Shown: one piece after another, positions 12,486 through 45,537 of the stretch
How positions within the stretch are numbered: position 1 is the first letter of the stretch
Layout: each line of letters starts with the position of its first letter
DNA from: Bacillota bacterium
GTDB taxonomy: Bacteria > Bacillota > Desulfotomaculia > Desulfotomaculales > Ammonificaceae
Reading direction: 5' to 3'
Assembly: GCA_040755195.1 (NCBI GenBank)
Contig: JBFMBL010000011.1
Location: 5,754 to 69,753, forward strand
Length of the DNA stretch: 64,000 bases
Made by a program: the position numbers and the translations under genes
Notes under the pieces: generated by a model
What the model saw: only the letters and a program-made list of their open reading frames with translations
Database searches by the model: none
What the model was told of the DNA's origin: nothing

Positions 12486-13550
12486 ATGGAACGGGAAGGG
12501 CTGGCGGTGGTAGTTTTAAGCGCCAGGGGGTTTTCCCTGGGGGAACGGCTCGGTGGCTTCTTAGGGGACTGGAAGGTGGAGGTTTTTGCGCCGGCCAGGC
12601 TCGGTAGCGGCCGGCCTTATCAGTCGCTCAGGGCCTTGGTGTCAATGCTTTTCCCGCGCGTGGAGGGGATTGTTTTCATTGCCGCGGTCGGGGTTGCGGT
12701 ACGGCTCATCGCGCCACACTTGAAGGATAAGTTTCGCGACCCGCCGGTGGTGGTGTTGGACGAGGCAGGGCGCTTTGCGGTGAGCCTTCTCGGGGGGCAC
12801 CACGGCGGGAACGCGCTTGCTGAAAAGGTGGCGGCGGCAGTCGGCGCCCGCCCGGTGGTGACTACGGCCAGCGACGTTTTGGGCCGTCCGGCGATCGATG
12901 TTTTTGCGGCGCGGTTCAACCTGGGCCTCGAACCGCGCAGTCACCTGTCCTCGGTGGCGCGGGCGCTGACCGAAGGAGAGCGGGTGGCGATCCTTTGGGA
13001 TGAGGAGTTCCCGCTGATTGATTACCGCTGGCCGCCCGAGGTAGCGGTTTTTCCCTGGCAGCCGGGAACCGACTTCCCCGGGGGATTTGCCGCCTGGATA
13101 GTGGTTACCGACAGGGTTGTAGCTCCTCCGGCAGAACCTTTTCTCTTTCTACGGCCCCGGCGGTATGTGGTGGGAATAGGATGCCGGCGCAACACCCCGG
13201 TGGTTAAAATCCTGTACGCACTTGAGCAGGTGGCGGCAGCGGAAGGCTTTTCCCTGCAAGGCATCCGGGAACTTGCTACCATAGACCTCAAAAGAGATGA
13301 AAAAGGGTTGCTGGCGGCGGCAGAAGAATTGGGGTTACCGGTCCGTTTTCTGGATGTGGGGGCGCTGAAAGTGATAAAGACGAGGCTCGATCCTGGGATG
13401 ATTCAAGAGAGTGCCTTTGTAAAAGAGAAAGTCGGGGTGGAAAATGTATGCGAACTGGCGGCCTTAGCGGCGGGGGGAGAAAGACTTGTGGCGCCGAAGA
13501 CCGTTTTCCCCGGAATCACGGTGGCGGTGGCGGCGGCTCCCTGGCCGTAG
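12486..13550 (+). CDS. cbiG: Cobalt-precorrin-5A hydrolase CbiG
   Basis: ATG 12486 follows AGGAGGAGGAA. CbiG-like sequence (VGIGCRRNTP) and operon position. Confidence 0.8.
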   Translation: MEREGLAVVVLSARGFSLGERLGGFLGDWKVEVFAPARLGSGRPYQSLRALVSMLFPRVEGIVFIAAVGVAVRLIAPHLKDKFRDPPVVVLDEAGRFAVSLLGGHHGGNALAEKVAAAVGARPVVTTASDVLGRPAIDVFAARFNLGLEPRSHLSSVARALTEGERVAILWDEEFPLIDYRWPPEVAVFPWQPGTDFPGGFAAWIVVTDRVVAPPAEPFLFLRPRRYVVGIGCRRNTPVVKILYALEQVAAAEGFSLQGIRELATIDLKRDEKGLLAAAEELGLPVRFLDVGALKVIKTRLDPGMIQESAFVKEKVGVENVCELAALAAGGERLVAPKTVFPGITVAVAAAPWP

Positions 13551-14257
13551 TGGGGATCGGGCCCGGCAGAACAGCGGAAATGACGCCGCGTGCCGTAGAG
13601 GCGCTAAAAGAGGCCGAAGTCGTGGTGGGATACCGTACTTACCTTGAGCTGATAGACCAAATCCTTACCGGGAAAGAGATCATTGAAAGCGGGATGCGGG
13701 AGGAGGTGGCGCGGGCGCGGGAAGCGGTAGCGCGCGCCGTGGCGGGAGCGCGAGTGGTGGTTGTTTCGAGCGGGGACCCCGGGGTTTACGGAATGGCCGC
13801 GCCGGTTCTGGAAGCCGCCGAGACGGCCGGGGTGGCGGTGACGGTTGTGCCGGGGGTGACGGCGGCAACGGCGGCGGCGGCGCTTTTAGGGGCGCCGCTC
13901 GGGCACGACTTCGCCGTGATTAGCTTGAGCGATCTTTTGACTCCCTGGTCAGTTATTGAAAAACGGCTGCGGGCGGCGGTAGACGCCGACTTTGTCCTGG
14001 TTCTTTACAACCCGGCAAGTTCCCGGCGGCAGGAAAAATGGCGCCAGGCCCTGGCCGTTATCCGGGAGGGACGCCCGCCGGAAACGCCGGCAGGAGTAGT
14101 CTGGGACGCCGGCCGGGAGGGCGAGCGGAAAGTCGTCTGCGATCTCGCTACAATAGCGGATTTCCCGGTGGATATGCGGGCCACGGTGATCGTGGGCAAT
14201 TCCCAAACTTACGTGGCCAACGGCGTGATGATAACACCCCGGGGGTATAAGTGGTGA
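13550..14257 (+). CDS. cbiH: Cobalt-factor III / precorrin-3B C17-methyltransferase CbiH
   Basis: VVGIGPGRTAEMTPRAVEAL, VVGYRTY, SSGDPGVYGM. Start is uncertain (GTG 13550, CTG 13541 or ATG 13448). Confidence 0.8.
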   Translation: MGIGPGRTAEMTPRAVEALKEAEVVVGYRTYLELIDQILTGKEIIESGMREEVARAREAVARAVAGARVVVVSSGDPGVYGMAAPVLEAAETAGVAVTVVPGVTAATAAAALLGAPLGHDFAVISLSDLLTPWSVIEKRLRAAVDADFVLVLYNPASSRRQEKWRQALAVIREGRPPETPAGVVWDAGREGERKVVCDLATIADFPVDMRATVIVGNSQTYVANGVMITPRGYKW

Positions 14258-14521
14258 GTAACTATTCAGGTGTTTCGTCGTCGGGCGCGGCGATAGGCAA
14301 CGCATTGCTGCGTCAGCCCGCACGGAGCCGAATCCTCACCCAGCACTCAGTTACGCCTTGTAAGATACTACTTCTGAGGAAACGCATATTTGTCCGCCCC
14401 GCGAAACTACGCCTTCATAGCAATCTGAGTGCTGGGCTCCGGTTCGTCTCCGCGGTCTTCCTTGCACTGCATCACTTCTCGCCGCGTTCCGTCAGCGAAA
14501 TGCTGACGGCTGAATAGGTAC
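14258..14521 (-). mobile_element. Family A miniature inverted-repeat element, copy 1 (carries a nested family C hairpin)
   Basis: Terminal inverted repeats GTAACTATTCAG (14258-14269) and CTGAATAGGTAC (14510-14521). Perfect 8-bp direct repeats AGTGGTGA at 14250-14257 and 14522-14529. Confidence 0.8.
14339..14436. repeat. Family C hairpin module (98 bp) nested in family A copy 1
   Basis: Arms CCCAGCACTCAG and CTGAGTGCTGGG. It occupies exactly the position of the apical CGTAC...GTACG hairpin seen in the other family A copies. Confidence 0.7.
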
Positions 14522-14522
14522 A

Positions 14523-15356
14523 GTGGTGATTCTTCTTCTGGGAGGCACTACGGAAGGGAGAGAAGCGGCGCGCGCGCTTGCTTCCCGCGGCTGGCCGGTG
14601 GTGGTAAGCGTGGCTACGCCCTACGGGGCGGAACTGGCGCGCTGCGGGTTCGACGGGGAAGTGCTGGTCGGACGGCGGGATAGCTCTGGTTTTGCCGCGC
14701 TCATCGGGGAGCGCGGGGTCGAGGTCGTGGTTGACGCCACCCATCCCTTCGCCGTTGAGGCCCGGCGGAATGCCCGGCGGGCGGCGGTACAGTGCCAGGT
14801 GCCGTACTTGCGCTTCACCCGTCCGCCGGAGCCCTTACCGGCGCACCCGCTCATCCGGCTGGCGCCGGATTTTGCTGCTGCGGCACGCCTGGCGGCGGCG
14901 CACGGGCCGGTTATCTTTTTAACCACGGGGAGCAAGACCCTTCCCTTTTTTCTCCCGGCGGCGCGGGCAGCCGGCCGCCGTGTGGTGGCGCGGGTGTTGC
15001 CGGAGCCGGAAGTGATTGCCGCGTGCCGGGAGCAGGGTCTTCTGCCGCGCGATATCGTGGCGCTTCAGGGGCCGGTCACCGAAGAACTCAACCGGGCGCT
15101 TTTCCGGGCATACGGCGCGACCGTGGTGGTCACTAAGGAAAGCGGCGGTTCCGGGGGACAGGCGGCGAAAATCAAAGCCGCGCTTGACTTGGGCATTCCA
15201 TTGGTGGTGGTGCGGCGGCCGCCGGAGGAACCGGGGAGTTTTTATGAGGCAGCAGAGCTTATAAAAAGAGTGGATAAGTTGATTGGAGGGGAAGGATTTG
15301 GAGGGAATAGTGGTCCTCGGCCACGGCAGCCGGGCGGCGGTGGACGAAGCGAATAG
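14523..15356 (+). CDS. cbiJ: Cobalt-precorrin-6A reductase CbiJ
   Basis: GTG 14523 (MVILLLGGTTEGREAA). CobK/CbiJ family. The 3' end overlaps cbiX by about 60-74 nt. Confidence 0.8.
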   Translation: MVILLLGGTTEGREAARALASRGWPVVVSVATPYGAELARCGFDGEVLVGRRDSSGFAALIGERGVEVVVDATHPFAVEARRNARRAAVQCQVPYLRFTRPPEPLPAHPLIRLAPDFAAAARLAAAHGPVIFLTTGSKTLPFFLPAARAAGRRVVARVLPEPEVIAACREQGLLPRDIVALQGPVTEELNRALFRAYGATVVVTKESGGSGGQAAKIKAALDLGIPLVVVRRPPEEPGSFYEAAELIKRVDKLIGGEGFGGNSGPRPRQPGGGGRSE

Positions 15357-16338: not shown

Positions 16339-16549
16339 TGAAAACATGGACCCTTAAGCTGGTGACTTAGAAGCACTAACGTGACAAAGGCGGAACGCGG
16401 CGAGAAGTGATGCAGTGCAAGGAAGACCGGTAGAGACGAGCCGGAGCGTACATAAGAGGTACGTGAGGACCCGGCTTTGCCGGGCTGACGCAGCAATGCG
16501 TTACTTCTCGCCGCGCCCACCGAAAGAAGCAGCATCTTCCGAGGGAGGG
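16339..16549 (+). repeat. Family A structured repeat, cob-type copy 2
   Basis: Core CGGAACGCGGCGAGAAGT...ACTTCTCGCCGCGCCC (16391-16518). Its flanks are shared with the copy at 19874-20088. It ends in GAGGGAGGG. Confidence 0.7.
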
Positions 16550-16572
16550 CGGGGATTCTGGCGCGGGCGCTA

Positions 16573-18075
16573 ATGATTCAGGGGACGGCTTCGCACGTGG
16601 GCAAGAGTATACTGGCGACGGCCTTCTGCAGGATCTTCAAGCAGGACGGTTACCGGGTGGCGCCGTTCAAGGCGCAGAATATGGCCTTGAATGCCTATGT
16701 CACCGGTGACGGTGGGGAGATCGGCCGGGCTCAGGGGGTGCAGGCGGAAGCGTCGGGGGTTGCGGCAACAGTGGACATGAACCCTGTACTCCTGAAACCC
16801 AAACGAGATACAGTGGCCCAGGTGATTGTGCATGGACGGCCGGTCGGAGATTTTTCGGCCCGGGATTACCGGGAGGACTACTTGGAGAAGGCATGGAAGG
16901 TCGTGACGGAAAGCTTTGCGCGCCTCGCGGCGGAATACGAAATCATTGTTATCGAAGGAGCCGGCAGCCCGGCCGAAGTCAACCTGCGGGATAGAGACAT
17001 CGCCAATATGCGGGCGGCGGCGCTTGCCGATGCCCCGGTTATCCTGGTGGCGGACATTGACCGGGGGGGCGTATTCGCCCAACTTGTGGGGACAATTCAA
17101 CTTCTCCCCCCGGATGAGGCGGCGCGCGTCAGTGGCTTCGTTATTAACAAGTTCCGCGGCGATTCAAGCATTCTGGAGCCGGGCTTGCGCTTCCTGGAGG
17201 AAAACACCGGGCGGCCGGTGCTCGGGGTGCTTCCGTACCTTCCGGATCTGGGGGTGGCGGCGGAAGATTCGGTAAGCTTAAATGACGGGGTCGTACGTCC
17301 CAGCACTCACGTCCGTGAGTGCTGGGCGCTGGATATCGCGGTTGTGCGGCTGCCGCGGATCGCTAATTTTGACGATTTTGACCCGCTGCTGCTGGAACCG
17401 GATGTTTCGCTGCGCTTTGTCACCCACCCGGCGCTCCTGGGCATTCCGGATTTAGTCATTCTCCCCGGAACCAAGAATACAGTGGCCGACCTTCACTGGC
17501 TCTATGCAACCGGTTGGGCGGATGTCATCTCGCAAAGGGCGGGTTGCGGAACGCCGGTCCTAGGCGTCTGCGGCGGGTATCAGATGTTGGGGAAAGAGAT
17601 CAGAGACCCGGAGGGAAGCGAAGATAAGGCCGGAACCTTTTCCGGACTCGGGCTTCTCGACGTGGCTACGGTTTTCCTTCCGGAGAAAGTAACGGCACGT
17701 GTCCGCGGCGCGGTAACGGGAGCAGGAATGCTGGCGGAATTGAAGGGCGAAGAAGTGAACGGGTACGAGATTCACGCCGGCAAAACTGTTCCGGGAGCAG
17801 AGGCGGAACCGGCTTTTGTTTTGAAGCGAAGTCACGGTGAAACAACCGAGGGATCGATCCAGGGGGCGGTCTGGGGGACGTACCTTCACGGCCTTTTTGA
17901 AGCGGACGGGTTTCGCCGGGGGTTTCTAAATCTTTTGCGAAAGCGGCGGGGCTTGGCCCCCGAAGATTTTGGGATATCTTTTATTCGGTGTAAGGAGGCA
18001 AGTTTCGACCGGGTGGCGGCGACGGTGCGGGAACATTTGCGCCTGGATGAGGTTTACAGTTGGCTGAATCTTTAG
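16573..18075 (+). CDS. cobQ: Cobyric acid synthase CobQ/CbiP
   Basis: MIQGTASHVGKS P-loop-like N-terminus and C-terminal glutamine amidotransferase (GVCGGYQMLG). The true start may lie upstream of the first ATG. Confidence 0.9.
   Translation: MIQGTASHVGKSILATAFCRIFKQDGYRVAPFKAQNMALNAYVTGDGGEIGRAQGVQAEASGVAATVDMNPVLLKPKRDTVAQVIVHGRPVGDFSARDYREDYLEKAWKVVTESFARLAAEYEIIVIEGAGSPAEVNLRDRDIANMRAAALADAPVILVADIDRGGVFAQLVGTIQLLPPDEAARVSGFVINKFRGDSSILEPGLRFLEENTGRPVLGVLPYLPDLGVAAEDSVSLNDGVVRPSTHVRECWALDIAVVRLPRIANFDDFDPLLLEPDVSLRFVTHPALLGIPDLVILPGTKNTVADLHWLYATGWADVISQRAGCGTPVLGVCGGYQMLGKEIRDPEGSEDKAGTFSGLGLLDVATVFLPEKVTARVRGAVTGAGMLAELKGEEVNGYEIHAGKTVPGAEAEPAFVLKRSHGETTEGSIQGAVWGTYLHGLFEADGFRRGFLNLLRKRRGLAPEDFGISFIRCKEASFDRVAATVREHLRLDEVYSWLNL
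17299..17326. repeat. Minimal family C palindrome inside the cobQ coding sequence
   Basis: CCCAGCACTCAC-GTCC-GTGAGTGCTGGG. It encodes PSTHVRECW in the inter-domain linker of CobQ. Confidence 0.7.
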
Positions 18076-18113
18076 AGTCTTTGACGTCAAGATCCACGCA
18101 AGATGGCAAGAAG

Positions 18114-18347
18114 AATTAACCACAGAGACACAGAGAACACGGAGAGGAAAAACGGAAATATGGGTATTTATTTTATTTCTAAATCATGAAATTTCTGTTC
18201 TCTGTGAACTCTATGCCTCTGTGGTGACCCAGCACTCAACTTGCTGATCTTAAGACGTGGCGTTCTAAGTTCGTATTATGTACGATGTTACAAAGTAGTT
18301 TTAACGTGTCGTTGAGTGCTGGGTGGTTCCGGCTTGTCCGGGTTAGG
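18114..18347 (+). repeat. Family B intercistronic inverted-repeat element, copy 1 (carries a nested family C module)
   Basis: AATTAACCACAGAGACACAGAGAACA ... TGTTCTCTGTGAACTCTATGCCTCTGTGGTGA ... GGTTCCGGCTTGTCCGGGTTAGG. Homologous to 38450-38727 and 40264-40408. Confidence 0.7.
18228..18323. repeat. Family C hairpin module (96 bp) nested in family B copy 1
   Basis: Arms CCCAGCACTCAAC and GTTGAGTGCTGGG. It replaces the AATATTTT segment present in the other two family B copies. Confidence 0.7.
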
Positions 18348-18401
18348 ATGTCCTTCGAGAGTGAAGGGTTTTAACATCTTGTTCTGAAACAGGGGATTTT
18401 T

Positions 18402-19873: not shown

Positions 19874-20088
19874 GAAAATGGGTCGACCCGTAAGCTTGTT
19901 ACTTAGAAGCAGTAATGTAACAAAGGCGGAACGCCGTGAGAAGTGACGCAGTGCAAGGCAGACCGTCGGAGGCGAACCGGAGCGTACTGGGAGGTACGTG
20001 AGGATTCGGCTCGGGCGGTCTAACGCAGCAATGCGTTGCTTATCGCGGCGCCCACCGAAAGAAGTACTATCTATTTTCGAGGGAGGGG
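19874..20088 (+). repeat. Family A structured repeat, cob-type copy 3
   Basis: Core CGGAACGCCGTGAGAAGT...GCTTATCGCGGCGCCC. Its 3' GAGGGAGGGG serves as the Shine-Dalgarno sequence for cobT. Confidence 0.7.
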
Positions 20089-20092
20089 TTTT

Positions 20093-21157
20093 ATGCTTTT
20101 AGCTCAAACTGTAGCCTGTATCGGCGAACTCGACCGGGAGGCAATGGCCCGGGCGCAAACGCGGATGGATAGCCTTTTGAAACCTCCCGGGAGCTTAGGG
20201 CGGTTGGAGGAAATAGCGGTGAAGCTTGCCGGGATTACCGGGAAGCCTTTTCCGGTAATTAAAAAAAAGAGCGTAATCGTAATGGCGGGTGATCACGGCG
20301 TTGTGGCGGAAGGGGTGAGTGCGGCGCCCCAGGAGATCACTTATCAGATACTCCCGCGATTCGTTGACGGCACCGGAGGAATCGGTGTTTTGGCGCGTCA
20401 CGCCGGAGCCCGGGTGGTGGTGGTGGATATCGGCGTGGCACGACCGGTGGACCGGCCGGGGGTAATAGTGCGGAAAATCCGCGCCGGTACAGGGAATATC
20501 GCCCGCGGGCCCGCAATGACCCGGGAAGAAGCAGCGCAGGCGGTCAGCGTAGGGATTGAACTGTCCCAGGCGGAAATTCAAGATGGAGTAGACCTTATCG
20601 CGACCGGGGATATGGGTATCGGCAATACTACGCCTTCAAGCGCGATCTTATGTGTTATAGCCGGTATTCCAGTGGATGAAGCGGTGGGCCGAGGAACAAT
20701 GGTGAACGATGAGGTGCTGGAGCGGAAGCGCCGGGTGGTGGCCCAAGCTATGAGCGTCAATCAGCCGGATCCAACCGATCCCCTCGATGTCCTGGCTAAG
20801 GTCGGGGGGCTGGAGATCGCCGGCCTTGCCGGGGTTATTCTGGGCGCGGCGGCGCAGCGGGTCCCTGTGCTGCTCGATGGATTCATCACCGGAGCGGCGG
20901 CGCTGATTGCCGCCGGTTTGTGCCCCCGGGCCAGGGAGTTCATGCTGGCCTCGCACCTTTCCGAAGAGCGGGCGCACAGGCACATGCTGACGGCGCTGGG
21001 ACTTAAGCCTTTGCTGGATTTCAATCTCCGGCTTGGGGAAGGCACGGGGGCGGCGCTGGCAATGCCGGTGGTGGAAGCATCGGTAAAGGTCCTCAAGGAG
21101 ATGGCTACTTTCGGTGAAGCCGAAGTGAGCGATATGGACAGGGAGAAGTTGCTGTAA
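20093..21157 (+). CDS. cobT: Nicotinate-nucleotide--dimethylbenzimidazole phosphoribosyltransferase CobT
   Basis: ATG 20093, 5 nt after GAGGGAGGGG. LLKPPGSLGRLEE and GEGTGAA motifs. Confidence 0.9.
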   Translation: MLLAQTVACIGELDREAMARAQTRMDSLLKPPGSLGRLEEIAVKLAGITGKPFPVIKKKSVIVMAGDHGVVAEGVSAAPQEITYQILPRFVDGTGGIGVLARHAGARVVVVDIGVARPVDRPGVIVRKIRAGTGNIARGPAMTREEAAQAVSVGIELSQAEIQDGVDLIATGDMGIGNTTPSSAILCVIAGIPVDEAVGRGTMVNDEVLERKRRVVAQAMSVNQPDPTDPLDVLAKVGGLEIAGLAGVILGAAAQRVPVLLDGFITGAAALIAAGLCPRAREFMLASHLSEERAHRHMLTALGLKPLLDFNLRLGEGTGAALAMPVVEASVKVLKEMATFGEAEVSDMDREKLL

Positions 21158-29599: not shown

Positions 29600-29790
29600 T
29601 GCGTATGCGCGTGAAAAGCCATACTCTGCCGAATCGCCACCTGGTGCTTTTGTCCCGGCGGTTACCCGCCGGTTTTGTGACACCGCTTACGGCCGTGGCC
29701 GGCCGGGAGGCACCCGCCGAATAGACCTCGATAAGCCTCCCCCTCGTCAACTGTCTTTGGTGCGATGATGAACTTCACCTGGCTGTTTCA
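29600..29790 (-). ncRNA. glmS ribozyme (GlcN6P-dependent), boundaries approximate
   Basis: Minus strand reads GACGAGGGGGAGGCTTATCGAGGTCTATTCGGCGGGTGCCTCCCGGCC...GCCGTAAGC...GGGACAAAAGCACC. This matches the conserved ribozyme core as I remember it from Bacillus and Thermoanaerobacter, and it lies directly 5' of glmS. Confidence 0.8.
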
Positions 29791-29892
29791 GAAGTCAGAA
29801 GCCAGAAGTCGGAAGTCCGAAAATTTAGGGGAAATTCGCATAGCGAATTTCTACAAAGATTCTGACCTCTGACATCCTGCATCCGACATCCG
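29789..29892. repeat. Heptad-periodic imperfect inverted repeat around a central hairpin
   Basis: CAGAAGT CAGAAGC CAGAAGT CGGAAGT ... GAAATTCGC-ata-GCGAATTTC ... TCTGACC TCTGACA TCCTGCA TCCGACA. Confidence 0.6.
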
Positions 29893-29990
29893 TTTCTGCC
29901 ATGCTCGTTCCTGATCGCACCCGAAGGTTTAACTTTCAACCTCCACAAACAGTTCTGGCGCTTGCAAATTGTCAGTTAAGAAACCTCATT

Positions 29991-31468: not shown

Positions 31469-33046
31469 TTACAGGTTCTCCTCACCTTCTGCCTTCAGGA
31501 GACCGTAGGCAAAGCTGTCCGCAAGCGCCTGCCAGCTCGCTTCGATGATATTCGGAGAAACTCCTACCGTAACCCAGGACCGGTGCCCGTCGGCCGTTTC
31601 GATAAGCACCCGGACCAGAGCGCCCGTCCCGGCGGTTTCATTTAAGACCCGCACCTTGTAGTCGGTAAGCCGCATGTTTTTTATATCGGGGTAAAACTGC
31701 TCAAGGGCTTTGCGGAGTGCGTTGTCGAGAGCGTTGACGGGGCCGTTGCCTTCGGCGGCTGTGTGAACCATCTTATCTCCTACCCGGAGCTTGATCGTGG
31801 CTTCGGAATGAACGGTCCCGCCTTCCTTCAGCTCATTGAGAATACGGAGGCTTTCCAGCAGGAAGGGTTTCTGATAGCCGTTTGAGGCCTTCATAAGCAG
31901 CAGTTCGAAGGAACCCTCGGCGCTTTCAAACTGGAACCCCTGGTGTTCGAGTTCTTTCAACTGTGCCAGGACCTGGCGGGCTGATTCCCCTTGTGTAGGC
32001 AGGTCAAGGTTCAGCTCGCGGATCTTGTGAATCATGTTTGAAAGTCCGGACAACTCTGAAACCAGCACCCGGCGGCGGTTGCCGACCGCTTCCGGGTTTA
32101 TATGCTCGTAAGTTAGCGGGTCTTTCATCAGCGCGCTGACGTGCAGACCGGCTTTACTGGCGAAGGCGCTCATCCCGACGTAAGGCTGCTGCGGGTTCGG
32201 GTGAACGTTGGCAACCTCGCTGACATAGCGGGAAAGCTCCACCAGACGCTGTATTCTTTCCGCCGGAATGGTAGAAATATCGCATTTCAACGAAAGATTG
32301 GGCACCACCACACAAAGGTCCGCATTCCCGCAGCGCTCGCCGTATCCGTTTACCGTTCCCTGTACATGGCTCGCGCCGGCCTGAACGGCCGCCAGGGTAT
32401 TCGCCACCGCCATCCCGGTGTCGTTGTGCGCGTGAACACCTACCGGGAGGTTGAATTTCCCGCACACCAACTCCACCACCGGGCCGATCTCCCACGAAAG
32501 CATGCCGCCGTTGGTGTCGCAGAGGACCAGGGCGGTTGCGCCGCCGGCGGCAGCCGCTTCAAGCGTGGCCAGGGCATACCCGGGGTTGGCTTTATAACCG
32601 TCGAAGAAATGTTCGGCGTCGTAGATCACAGCGAGTCCCTGCTCCCGCAGATAAGCGATCGATTCCCGGATCATCGCCAGGTTTTCTTCAAGGGTGGTAC
32701 CGAGCGCCCGGGTCACGTGAAAGTCCCAGCTCTTCCCGACAAGTGTAGCTGTTTTGGCGCCTGATTGCAGAATTACCGCCAGGTTCTCGTCATCGGCCGG
32801 ACGGACGTTCTTCTTCCTGGTGGCGCCGAACGCCGCAACCTGCGCGTTTTCAAGCCTGAGTTCGCGAACACGGGCAAAATACTCCATGTCCTTGGGGTTG
32901 GAGCCGGGGTAGCCCCCTTCGACGTAATGAAAGCCCATCCGGTCGAGCTTTTGCGTGATTTTCAATTTATCTTCAACGGAAAAGGAGATCCCTTCCGTCT
33001 GCGCTCCATCACGTAGCGTGGTATCATAAATCTCTACTGCACGCAT
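31469..33046 (-). CDS. cimA: LeuA-family synthase, citramalate synthase (CimA) type
   Basis: MRAVEIYDTTLRDGAQTEGISFS, 525 aa with a LeuA-dimer-like C-terminus. Could instead be a second isopropylmalate synthase. Confidence 0.7.
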   Translation of the reverse strand: MRAVEIYDTTLRDGAQTEGISFSVEDKLKITQKLDRMGFHYVEGGYPGSNPKDMEYFARVRELRLENAQVAAFGATRKKNVRPADDENLAVILQSGAKTATLVGKSWDFHVTRALGTTLEENLAMIRESIAYLREQGLAVIYDAEHFFDGYKANPGYALATLEAAAAGGATALVLCDTNGGMLSWEIGPVVELVCGKFNLPVGVHAHNDTGMAVANTLAAVQAGASHVQGTVNGYGERCGNADLCVVVPNLSLKCDISTIPAERIQRLVELSRYVSEVANVHPNPQQPYVGMSAFASKAGLHVSALMKDPLTYEHINPEAVGNRRRVLVSELSGLSNMIHKIRELNLDLPTQGESARQVLAQLKELEHQGFQFESAEGSFELLLMKASNGYQKPFLLESLRILNELKEGGTVHSEATIKLRVGDKMVHTAAEGNGPVNALDNALRKALEQFYPDIKNMRLTDYKVRVLNETAGTGALVRVLIETADGHRSWVTVGVSPNIIEASWQALADSFAYGLLKAEGEENL

Positions 33047-33066
33047 TTATCCCTTATACCTCCGAT

Positions 33067-33244
33067 GCAACCATTCAAGTGCTTCCGTGGGGCGCGGCGA
33101 TAAGCGGCGCATAACTTCGTCAGGCCCTACCGGCCAGGTCCTCACGTATTCCCGTATACGCTCCGGCCTGTCCGGTTGTGCCTTCCTTGTTCTACTTGCT
33201 TCTGGCCGCGTTCCGTAAGTGTTAGGCGACAGATGAATAGTTAC
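33067..33244 (-). mobile_element. Family A miniature inverted-repeat element, copy 4
   Basis: Termini GCAACCATTCAAG and ATGAATAGTTAC. Perfect 8-bp direct repeats CCTCCGAT at 33059-33066 and 33245-33252. Confidence 0.8.
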
Positions 33245-33371
33245 CCTCCGATAACGGTCGTCTGTCGCCAGTTGTCGGTGGTTAATTTCTCATTTCTTTT
33301 TGCACCGACCAGCTAACTCAGCAAAAACACTGCATTCTGCCTTCTATATTCTGAATTCTGACTTCTGTATT

Positions 33372-45047: not shown

Positions 45048-45537
45048 GCCTCCCGCCCGGTCCGCACTTAGTGCTTGACCAGGGACGAGAGGCTAAAACC
45101 TCCGCGGTACCACCCCGGTTGCCGCTACCTCACGGTAAAACGGCCTCTTTGGTGTGTCGTGTTCAACACACGGCTTTGGTAACGGGATACCATCCCGGAA
45201 CAGGCTACTGGGAACGTAAACATTCAGGTGCTCCCGAGGGGCGCGGCAATAAGCGGCGCATAACTTCGTCAGGCTTGCCGGCCAGGTCCTCACGTATTTC
45301 CGTATACGCTCCGGCCTGTCCGGCTGCGCCTTCCTCGTTCTACTTGCTTCTTGCCGCGTTCCGCAAACGTTAGGTGACGACTGAATAGTTACTACTCGGG
45401 ACCTAACATCCTTTTCGCCCTTCGACTCGGGGGTGATTAAGAAACGCGCTCCAGCACCGGCTCGCACCAAACCCGGCTCGCTTTGCAGCAAGACAGCGAT
45501 CCTTCGTCCCCGTCTTCGTCTTTAACGGCTATGATTT
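45048..45537 (-). promoter_or_regulatory. T-box leader (candidate Leu specifier CUU), interrupted by family A copy 5
   Basis: Minus strand has a Stem I distal AGCGAGCCGGGTTTGGTGCGAGCCGG, the T-box sequence AACCGGGGTGGTACCGCGG (45102-45120), and an F-box-like CCGTTA. Terminator hairpin GCCTCTCGTCCCTGGTC...GACCGGGCGGGAGGC (45048-45093) is followed by TTTAGTTTATAGTTTTAT. Confidence 0.75.
45216..45392 (-). mobile_element. Family A miniature inverted-repeat element, copy 5, inside the T-box leader
   Basis: Termini GTAAACATTCAG (45216-45227) and CTGAATAGTTAC (45381-45392). Flanked by a decayed direct repeat, TACTGGGA (45206-45213) versus TACTCGGGA (45393-45401). Confidence 0.7.

Follow-up and report, generated by a model that had tools for sequence, protein, structure and literature searches.

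Short, non-coding, hairpin-forming repeats that are present in many copies, carry terminal inverted repeats and are flanked by a target duplication include Correia/NEMIS of Neisseria, ERIC, RUP, and BOX, all of which insert between genes of one transcript and are transcribed along with those genes. These families are among the closest described counterparts of a 264-bp element that separates the cobalamin biosynthesis genes cbiH and cbiJ in the window described here, a 64,000-nucleotide stretch of contig JBFMBL010000011.1 from a bacterium of the Ammonificaceae (Bacillota). The element shares the properties listed above, whereas the described families have other parent transposases and other duplications (TA for Correia). 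MITEs (miniature inverted-repeat transposable elements) inside operons are already well known, and the locus, though well supported, exemplifies an event of a known kind and introduces no new sort of element. To our knowledge, however, no MITE, including those named above, has been reported to rebuild an overlapping stop/start pair, and no IS66-derived MITE was reported in the literature searched.

The 264-bp spacer is very probably a non-autonomous MITE with terminal repeats of the IS66 family (ISBst12 group), inserted at the overlap between the cbiH stop and the cbiJ start. This assignment is carried by direct observations of its anatomy, its target duplication, empty and filled orthologous sites, membership in a multi-copy family, and IS66-type ends. 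The element and the genes on either side of it comprise the following parts.

13550..14257, plus strand: cbiH, encoding cobalt-precorrin-3B C17-methyltransferase (TIGR01466), with its last codons TGG TGA (14252-14257) in the left duplication.
14250..14257, plus strand: left copy of the target duplication, AGTGGTGA, carrying the cbiH stop and the former cbiJ starts GTG 14251 and GTG 14254.
14251..14517, plus strand: open reading frame (ORF) through the element, 88 codons from GTG 14251 or 87 from GTG 14254, a putative translational relay.
14258..14269, plus strand: left terminal inverted repeat, GTAACTATTCAG, an IS66/ISBst12-type end.
14283..14339, plus strand: left arm of the conserved core hairpin (GGGCGCGGCGATAGGC...CCTCAC), common to copies B to E of the window and 22 genome matches, with covariation.
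14340..14436, plus strand: nested palindromic repeat N, with ends CCCAGCACTCA and TGAGTGCTGGG, delimited by comparison with L003 and L004.
14437..14491, plus strand: right arm of the core hairpin (CTCCGG...CTTCTCGCCGCGTTCCG).
14510..14521, plus strand: right terminal inverted repeat, CTGAATAGGTAC, including the TAG (14515-14517) that closes the frame through the element.
14522..14529, plus strand: right copy of the target duplication, AGTGGTGA, supplying the cbiJ start (GTG 14523 and/or 14526).
14526..15356, plus strand: cbiJ, encoding cobalt-precorrin-6A reductase (TIGR00715), intact.

Direct reading of the window places the element at 14258-14521, and its 12-bp terminal repeats are complementary at 11 of 12 positions (GTACCTATTCAG, the reverse complement of CTGAATAGGTAC, against GTAACTATTCAG). 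An independent repeat search of the window returned the same direct pair and the same inverted pair, so the description in the initial annotation of a 264-bp element with imperfect 12-bp ends, flanked by perfect AGTGGTGA repeats of which the left supplies the cbiH stop and the right the cbiJ start, holds in full. The chance of a perfect 8-bp match exactly at the ends of the inverted repeats is about 1.5e-5, and the terminal 12-mer, allowing at most 2 mismatches, occurs 8 times in the window compared with 2.0 expected. Chance is set aside chiefly because the same ends and 8-bp duplications recur in at least nine other copies. The element encodes no transposase, and its sole ORF, the 88-codon frame, has no family match in NCBIfam. 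Terminal inverted repeats, a duplication of fixed length, small size without a transposase, multiple copies, and an orthologous empty site, the properties that define a MITE, are thus all present.

The initial annotation had proposed comparing the cbiH-cbiJ junction in close relatives, and relatives found by CbiJ homology search and contig comparison do include empty sites. Three of them, with 75-80% CbiJ identity, have a single target octamer and a cbiH TGA overlapping the cbiJ GTG in a 4-nt GTGA overlap. The junction of L005, a metagenome-assembled genome (MAG) from NCBI with 80% CbiJ identity and ~78% DNA identity, reads ...TATAAGTGGTGATCC... / ...GGGTATAAGTGGTGATCCTC..., with one AGTGGTGA and the TGA overlapping the GTG. 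L009 (79% CbiJ identity) and L007 (75%) have the same 4-nt overlap and a single, slightly different octamer, TATAGGTGGTGATCC and TACAGGCGGTGATTC, respectively. These empty sites bear out the proposal that a MITE entered a GTGGTGA overlap and that its duplication rebuilt both codons. A transposase, presumably supplied in trans, would have made a staggered 8-bp cut in the ancestral junction (...AAGTGGTGATT...), and repair would have copied AGTGGTGA, with the left copy keeping the cbiH end (TGG TGA) and the right copy keeping the cbiJ GTG. Both genes would have survived because the 8 bp spanned by the staggered cut contained the stop as well as the start.

The same site is filled in two relatives from other samples, L003 (94% CbiJ identity) and L004 (89%), in which a 183-bp form of the element lies at the same position, in the same orientation, and with AGTGGTGA on both sides. 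The ends of the L004 copy are degraded (TCAAC...). Flanking DNA of L003 and L004 is ~92% identical to the window overall (~4-8% divergence), with cbiH at 96.5%. As both carry the same insertion, orientation, and duplication, the insertion predates their split from the window lineage; it would have occurred after the split from L005, L007, and L009 (~75-80% identity) and before that from L003 and L004 (~92-96% in the flanks). The insertion, which had been called recent, is therefore young relative to the 75-80% relatives with empty sites and not in absolute terms, given its presence in relatives at 89-94%. Independent insertions at a hot spot, or lateral transfer, would allow a recent origin in the window, and could draw on the element arms, which differ at 2 of 167 positions between the window and L003, below the ~8% average regional divergence, and on a hint of site preference, since copies of this type often lie at stop codons or tight junctions. 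That account is nonetheless improbable: position, orientation, and duplication are identical in the window, L003, and L004, the duplicated octamers of the family have no visible consensus, and local cbiH is itself 96.5% identical, with 3.4% divergence at four-fold sites that does not differ significantly from that of the element (Fisher p=0.26), such that one ancestral event suffices. For the same reason, stronger-than-neutral conservation of the element (2/167 vs 3.4% at four-fold cbiH sites) was considered and rejected; with arms no more conserved than those sites, there is no sign of selection on the element sequence. In two other samples with a 100% identical cbiJ, the contigs start within the element's right arm, where a repeat present in many copies would be expected to break an assembly.

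Other junctions of the cbi operon also vary among relatives that lack the cbiH/cbiJ insertion. Gaps of 360-420 bp occur at L005:6407-6768, L007:7851-8229, and L007:10778-11193, at junctions where the window or another relative has overlapping genes, and these gaps match none of the repeat families described here.

The element belongs to a family with three copies in the window that have IS66-type ends and two more that share only the core, designated type II. The four copies other than the cbiH/cbiJ element, termed element A, are as follows.

45216..45392, plus strand: copy B, 177 bp, 89% identical to copy C, with the same ends.
33067..33244, plus strand: copy C, 178 bp, with the 8-bp duplication CCTCCGAT at 33059-33066 and 33245-33252.
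16365..16549, minus strand: copy D, the core hairpin with non-IS66 ends (type II), just upstream of the cobQ ribosome-binding site.
19901..20087, minus strand: copy E, type II, directly upstream of the next gene's ribosome-binding site and start codon (ATG 20093).

The arms of copies D and E are 85-93% identical to those of element A, and the duplication of copy C holds the Shine-Dalgarno sequence of the downstream citramalate/isopropylmalate synthase gene (31469-33046, minus strand). A degenerate scan for the core motif, with one genome per species, returned 22 matches, all in six MAGs of one uncultured Bacillota clade. Other copies, which the initial annotation had suggested seeking, were present in the window and in these loci: besides element A, eight with GTAACTATTCAG-type ends are flanked by 8-bp duplications that are either perfect or match at 7/8, namely copy C of the window and those in L012, L013, L014, L016, L017, L020, and L022. 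Duplications are perfect in L012 (TCCTTACA), L013 (GAAAAAAC), L017 (AAATTGGA), L020 (GATTAAAA), and L022 (AGGGTAAT), and match at 7 of 8 positions in L014 and L016. The conserved part that goes with a duplication is the terminus (consensus GTAACTATTCAGG), while the interiors of the copies differ and are often multiply nested. Several copies have a stop codon within 0-2 nt or occupy the space between closely packed genes (L014:2921-3098, L016:6236-6480, L020:5449-5591, and L022:4988-5237). The L020 duplication contains the TAA of the upstream gene, much as at cbiH/cbiJ, and in L014 a 500-codon frame ends inside the terminal repeat, whose GTAA end gives the TAA. This placement could mean that the element prefers such sites, or that insertions persist only where the duplication restores the junction.

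An alignment of the core from 13 un-nested copies forms a five-helix hairpin with 96.4% of cells paired and compensatory changes in 11 of 32 pairs, a covariation matched by none of 500 shuffles and with slid controls only 34-48% paired; the copies are related by descent, so these statistics overstate their independence. The core palindrome is clearly maintained across sub-families, which is compatible with a DNA-level need, an RNA role, or palindrome repair. An asymmetry between strands in the G-U pairs of the core was set aside because it reflects mostly two invariant positions. As RNA, the whole element is predicted to fold into a long imperfect hairpin that pairs both terminal repeats (minimum free energy -109 kcal/mol, z -2.4 vs shuffles). 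Riboswitches are common in B12 operons, and a paired, compensating core inside such an operon might be taken for a native structured regulatory RNA that is not mobile. This is scarcely credible, as no match was found over the element in Rfam at gathering thresholds, with only noise at E<=5, and the fold surpasses those of shuffled sequences by a modest margin only (z -2.4 and -1.8). The element is also absent from the orthologous junctions of intact operons and flanked by a target duplication where present, and it recurs in leu/ilv regions and many unrelated contexts.

The parentage of the MITE is indicated by its ends. IS66 elements have ends that start with GTAA, GTAAGCG/GTAACCG in the literature, and generate 8-bp direct repeats (PMC11946415). 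ISDge4 of Deinococcus geothermalis, a member of the single-ORF ISBst12 group, has ends GTGACTACTCAGCA/GTAACTGCTCAGCA, a 449-aa transposase, and an 8-bp direct repeat (PMC12898284). The cbiH/cbiJ element shares with this group, to which ISBst12 of Geobacillus stearothermophilus also belongs, the GTAACT..TCAG start of the terminal repeats (GTAACTGCTCAGCA / GTGACTACTCAGCA in ISDge4 and GTAACTATTCAGGTG / GTACCTATTCAGCCG here) and the 8-bp duplication. It differs in its 264-bp size, its lack of a transposase, and an unrelated interior, a hairpin module shared with other repeat families.

Metagenomes were scanned with the 17-nt terminus GTAACTATTCAGGTGCT, and the results that follow are among the matches listed. 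This terminus heads several unrelated MITE families of 144-201 bp with perfect 8-bp duplications (L063, L080, L088, L107, L111, and L146) and adjoins a single ORF of 456-504 aa in the contigs L037, L046, L054, L073, L081, and L100. Both ends were located for L037, L046, L073, and L081, giving elements of 1529-1776 bp. Pfam searches of three of the ORFs (L046, L073, and L100) found DDE_Tnp_IS66 (PF03050, E 1e-40 to 1e-42), together with zf-IS66 and DUF6444 (PF13005 and PF20042). The terminus is identical across these elements even though their transposases share only 25-48% identity, and the hosts differ widely in G+C. Instead of a direct duplication, L073 has flanks that together make an extended inverted repeat (ctccggtcagcc / ggctgaccggag). 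A 1.2-kb element in L114 with the right ends and a perfect 8-bp duplication was considered as an autonomous form and rejected, since it holds transposase fragments only, and many other 17-mer matches were set aside as a marine coding gene or chance.

Three of the four marks by which an IS66/ISBst12 origin was judged were thus found: GTAA ends, 8-bp repeats, and full-length elements with DDE_Tnp_IS66. Because the same terminus is present on elements with IS66 transposases, alongside the GTAA ends and 8-bp duplications, the sequence comparisons identify the cbiH/cbiJ element as an IS66/ISBst12-type MITE. An autonomous partner in this genome, providing transposase in trans, is assumed. The partner sought by the initial annotation through shared terminal repeats was accordingly located in part, as IS66-type elements of metagenomes carry the terminus and none was detected in the window or the clade loci.

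Three observations weigh against an IS66-derived MITE. The window and ~260 kb of clade loci yielded no IS66-family transposase, no remnant of one, and no multi-copy ORF, the flanks of copy B show no clear 8-bp duplication, and in copies D and E, as in the majority of the MAG copies, the core hairpin has completely different ends. Since the core occurs with other ends, the interior is better regarded as a module shared between repeat families than as a simply deleted insertion sequence. The make-up is that of bacterial interspersed mosaic elements (BIMEs) and nested MITEs, with a modular mosaic, one core with different ends, and palindromic modules in the hairpin tip. The same core with type II ends, the palindromic modules nested in hairpin tips, and the lack of a target duplication around the nested N element might therefore favor a palindromic element that is REP/BIME-like or of IS200/IS605 type and is mobilized by a tyrosine (HUH) transposase or spreads through recombination. 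However, REP/BIME and IS200/IS605 derivatives have no target duplication and no such terminal inverted repeats, their hairpins being sub-terminal, and BIMEs consist of REP units without target duplications. The family described here has 8-bp duplications in ten copies, true terminal inverted repeats, and a terminus identical to that of elements encoding IS66-family DDE transposases, and its outer unit behaves as a DDE-type MITE, which makes the palindromic alternative very unlikely. Neither the distinguishing features of REP/BIME or IS200/IS605 elements nor those of a riboswitch or RNA family were found in the element, which retains its assignment as an IS66-type MITE.

The type II class is the more abundant one. 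Its left end reads ..CTCCyTTGAAAATAGTACTTCTTTCG and its right end ..GTTACA..GCATCTAAGTAACAAGCTTACGGGTC.ACATTTTCA, often followed by a small GC hairpin. Judged by eye, most of ~20 type II copies (L010-L031 and the window) are antisense and lie a few nucleotides from the Shine-Dalgarno sequence and start codon of a gene, with cobQ, the gene at 20093, and numerous genes of the MAGs among them. Type II copies showed no target duplication.

Both flanking ORFs are intact, as had been noted from the sequence, and NCBIfam matches confirm CbiH (TIGR01466, 314.8 bits vs a cut-off of 246, profile positions 1-239 of 239) and CbiJ/precorrin-6A reductase (TIGR00715, 190.7 bits vs 129.85). The frame through the element starts at the ancestral cbiJ start position, overlapping the cbiH TGA, and its stop (TAG 14515-14517) lies 5 nt before GTG 14523 and 8 nt before GTG 14526. 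All of the sequence context in which cbiJ ancestrally initiated, a GGGGGT motif and a GTG overlapping the TGA, survives at the left duplication. The same frame is open in L003, where it has 61 codons and was called as a gene, and in L004, and the 81-nt nested replacement in the window adds exactly 27 codons without a stop. A promoter and terminator scan found no sigma-70-like promoter or intrinsic-terminator match in the element, and because no such signal is recognizable the operon is probably still read through.

Ribosomes that formerly started cbiJ would start at the GTG of the left copy, translate 87 or 88 codons while melting the hairpin, stop at the TAG in the right terminal repeat, and re-initiate 5-8 nt further on at cbiJ. 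In bacteria, re-initiation after termination across distances as short as these is a well-established process. Translational coupling may thus be relayed rather than broken, and the statement in the initial annotation that the insertion broke it is open to doubt, as the duplicated start opens an 87/88-codon frame that ends 5-8 nt before cbiJ. Statistically, the case for the relay is weak: in a shuffle test, the frame was open by chance in 51% of cases for the 183-bp form and in 12% for the 264-bp form, and the chance that the nested part would stay both in frame and open, ~0.05, is marginal. Open frames in copies B and C were considered as evidence for a relay and judged uninformative.

It is a tangible possibility, though not the favored one, that cbiH-cbiJ coupling was abolished, with cbiJ now translated independently from a weak AGGT or under-expressed. 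The cbiH stop and cbiJ start are now 266 nt apart, the only Shine-Dalgarno-like motif before cbiJ is that AGGT (14516-14519), which lies within the terminal-repeat stem, and the openness of the through-frame is not statistically compelling. Against a loss of coupling, the ancestral start context is preserved at the left copy, the frame remains free of stops to within 5-8 nt of cbiJ in each of the three insertion-bearing lineages, and the nested 81-nt replacement left it open. The insertion has also been kept across lineages ~4-8% diverged in their flanks, in a gene needed for B12 synthesis.

Comparison with L003 and L004 indicates a composite origin for the 264-bp element: a MITE of 183 bp later had its hairpin tip exchanged for a repeat of the N family. 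The tip of L003 and L004 has 16 nt (GTACGCACCCAGTACG), which the window replaces with 97 nt (14340-14436), a net gain of 81 nt or 27 codons. Replacement of the tip by this 97-nt palindromic repeat with CCCAGCACTCA ends would have followed the insertion and occurred in the window lineage only. The N family has ~26 copies in the window and clade loci, with at least five different interiors; they always form the center of a larger inverted repeat and have no visible target duplication.

Palindromic modules also occupy other sites nearby. A perfect 28-nt palindrome, CCCAGCACTCA-CGTCCG-TGAGTGCTGGG, lies in cobQ (16573-18075, plus strand) at 17299-17326 and at L003:12833-12860. It is in frame and adds six residues (..RPSTHVRECWALDI.. 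compared with ..RPEAQ------LEI.. in L005 and L007), and it looks like a minimal copy or footprint of an N element tolerated in a coding region. A similar 27-nt mini-copy is found at L005:1055-1083. In these in-frame residues, and in the open frame that crosses the MITE, the locus resembles the Rickettsia palindromic elements; those elements, however, sit within genes, whereas the cbiH/cbiJ element lies between genes, and the sequence families are unrelated.

The spacer between cobQ and cbiA (18076-18401) is 326 bp in the window vs 46 bp in L005 and contains a stand-alone N element (18228-18323) and an AT-rich stretch. A near-identical copy of this N element occurs at L030:2238-2330, in a different MAG, and because its flanks are also similar, the moving unit may be larger than the N element itself. 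A third palindromic family, with GTCAGA/GTCGGA runs around the center GAAATTCGCTATGCGAATTTC, is inserted at ~29759-29942 in the glmS ribozyme (29631-29973, minus strand, 90.1 bits), whose P1 loop holds 183 nt vs 6 in the Rfam model. This module is also nested in hairpins at L011:1808 and L012:1142, with variants in the L012 and L013 MITEs.

A more ambitious proposal would combine a relay ORF whose frame is kept by selection with a clade-wide system of palindromic modules homing to hairpin tips, including the MITE apex, small stem-loops, the glmS P1 loop, and a coding region, and with a core hairpin that is possibly domesticated. As a whole, this proposal is doubtful.

The gene neighborhood is that of a cobalamin operon, with CbiG upstream of CbiH and with CbiC and CobQ downstream of CbiJ. 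The gene starts of the initial annotation stood in part. The cbiJ start does lie in the right repeat, while cbiH starts at GTG 13550 rather than 13448, giving a 1-nt overlap with the cbiG stop, as judged by homology with the gene calls of L003 and L005. For cbiJ, the second GTG (14526) is most likely the conserved start, in place of the exact GTG (14523) first chosen, because gene calls in two other samples give an identical product of 276 aa and, of the two GTGs, L007 has this one alone. Both candidates lie inside the duplicated octamer, and the rebuilding of the two codons is unaffected by the choice. Further downstream, the cobQ frame is conserved upstream of ATG 16573 (..ATT CTG GCG CGG GCG CTA ATG.., 16555-16575 of the window), with TTG in L005 and ATG in L007 at the position of CTG 16558 and a ribosome-binding motif, GGGAGGG, just before it. 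The cobQ start in the window and L003 may thus be a non-canonical CTG (or ATT).

The locus provides a natural example of a compact, translationally coupled operon absorbing a transposon, and it connects a family of MITEs with a branch of IS66 that has received little study, the single-ORF (ISBst12) one. The nested repeats that occupy hairpin tips, together with the mosaic core, are a more unusual lead than the MITE itself. The relay ORF, if true, would give a simple rule, general in scope, as to the operon junctions at which MITEs are tolerated.

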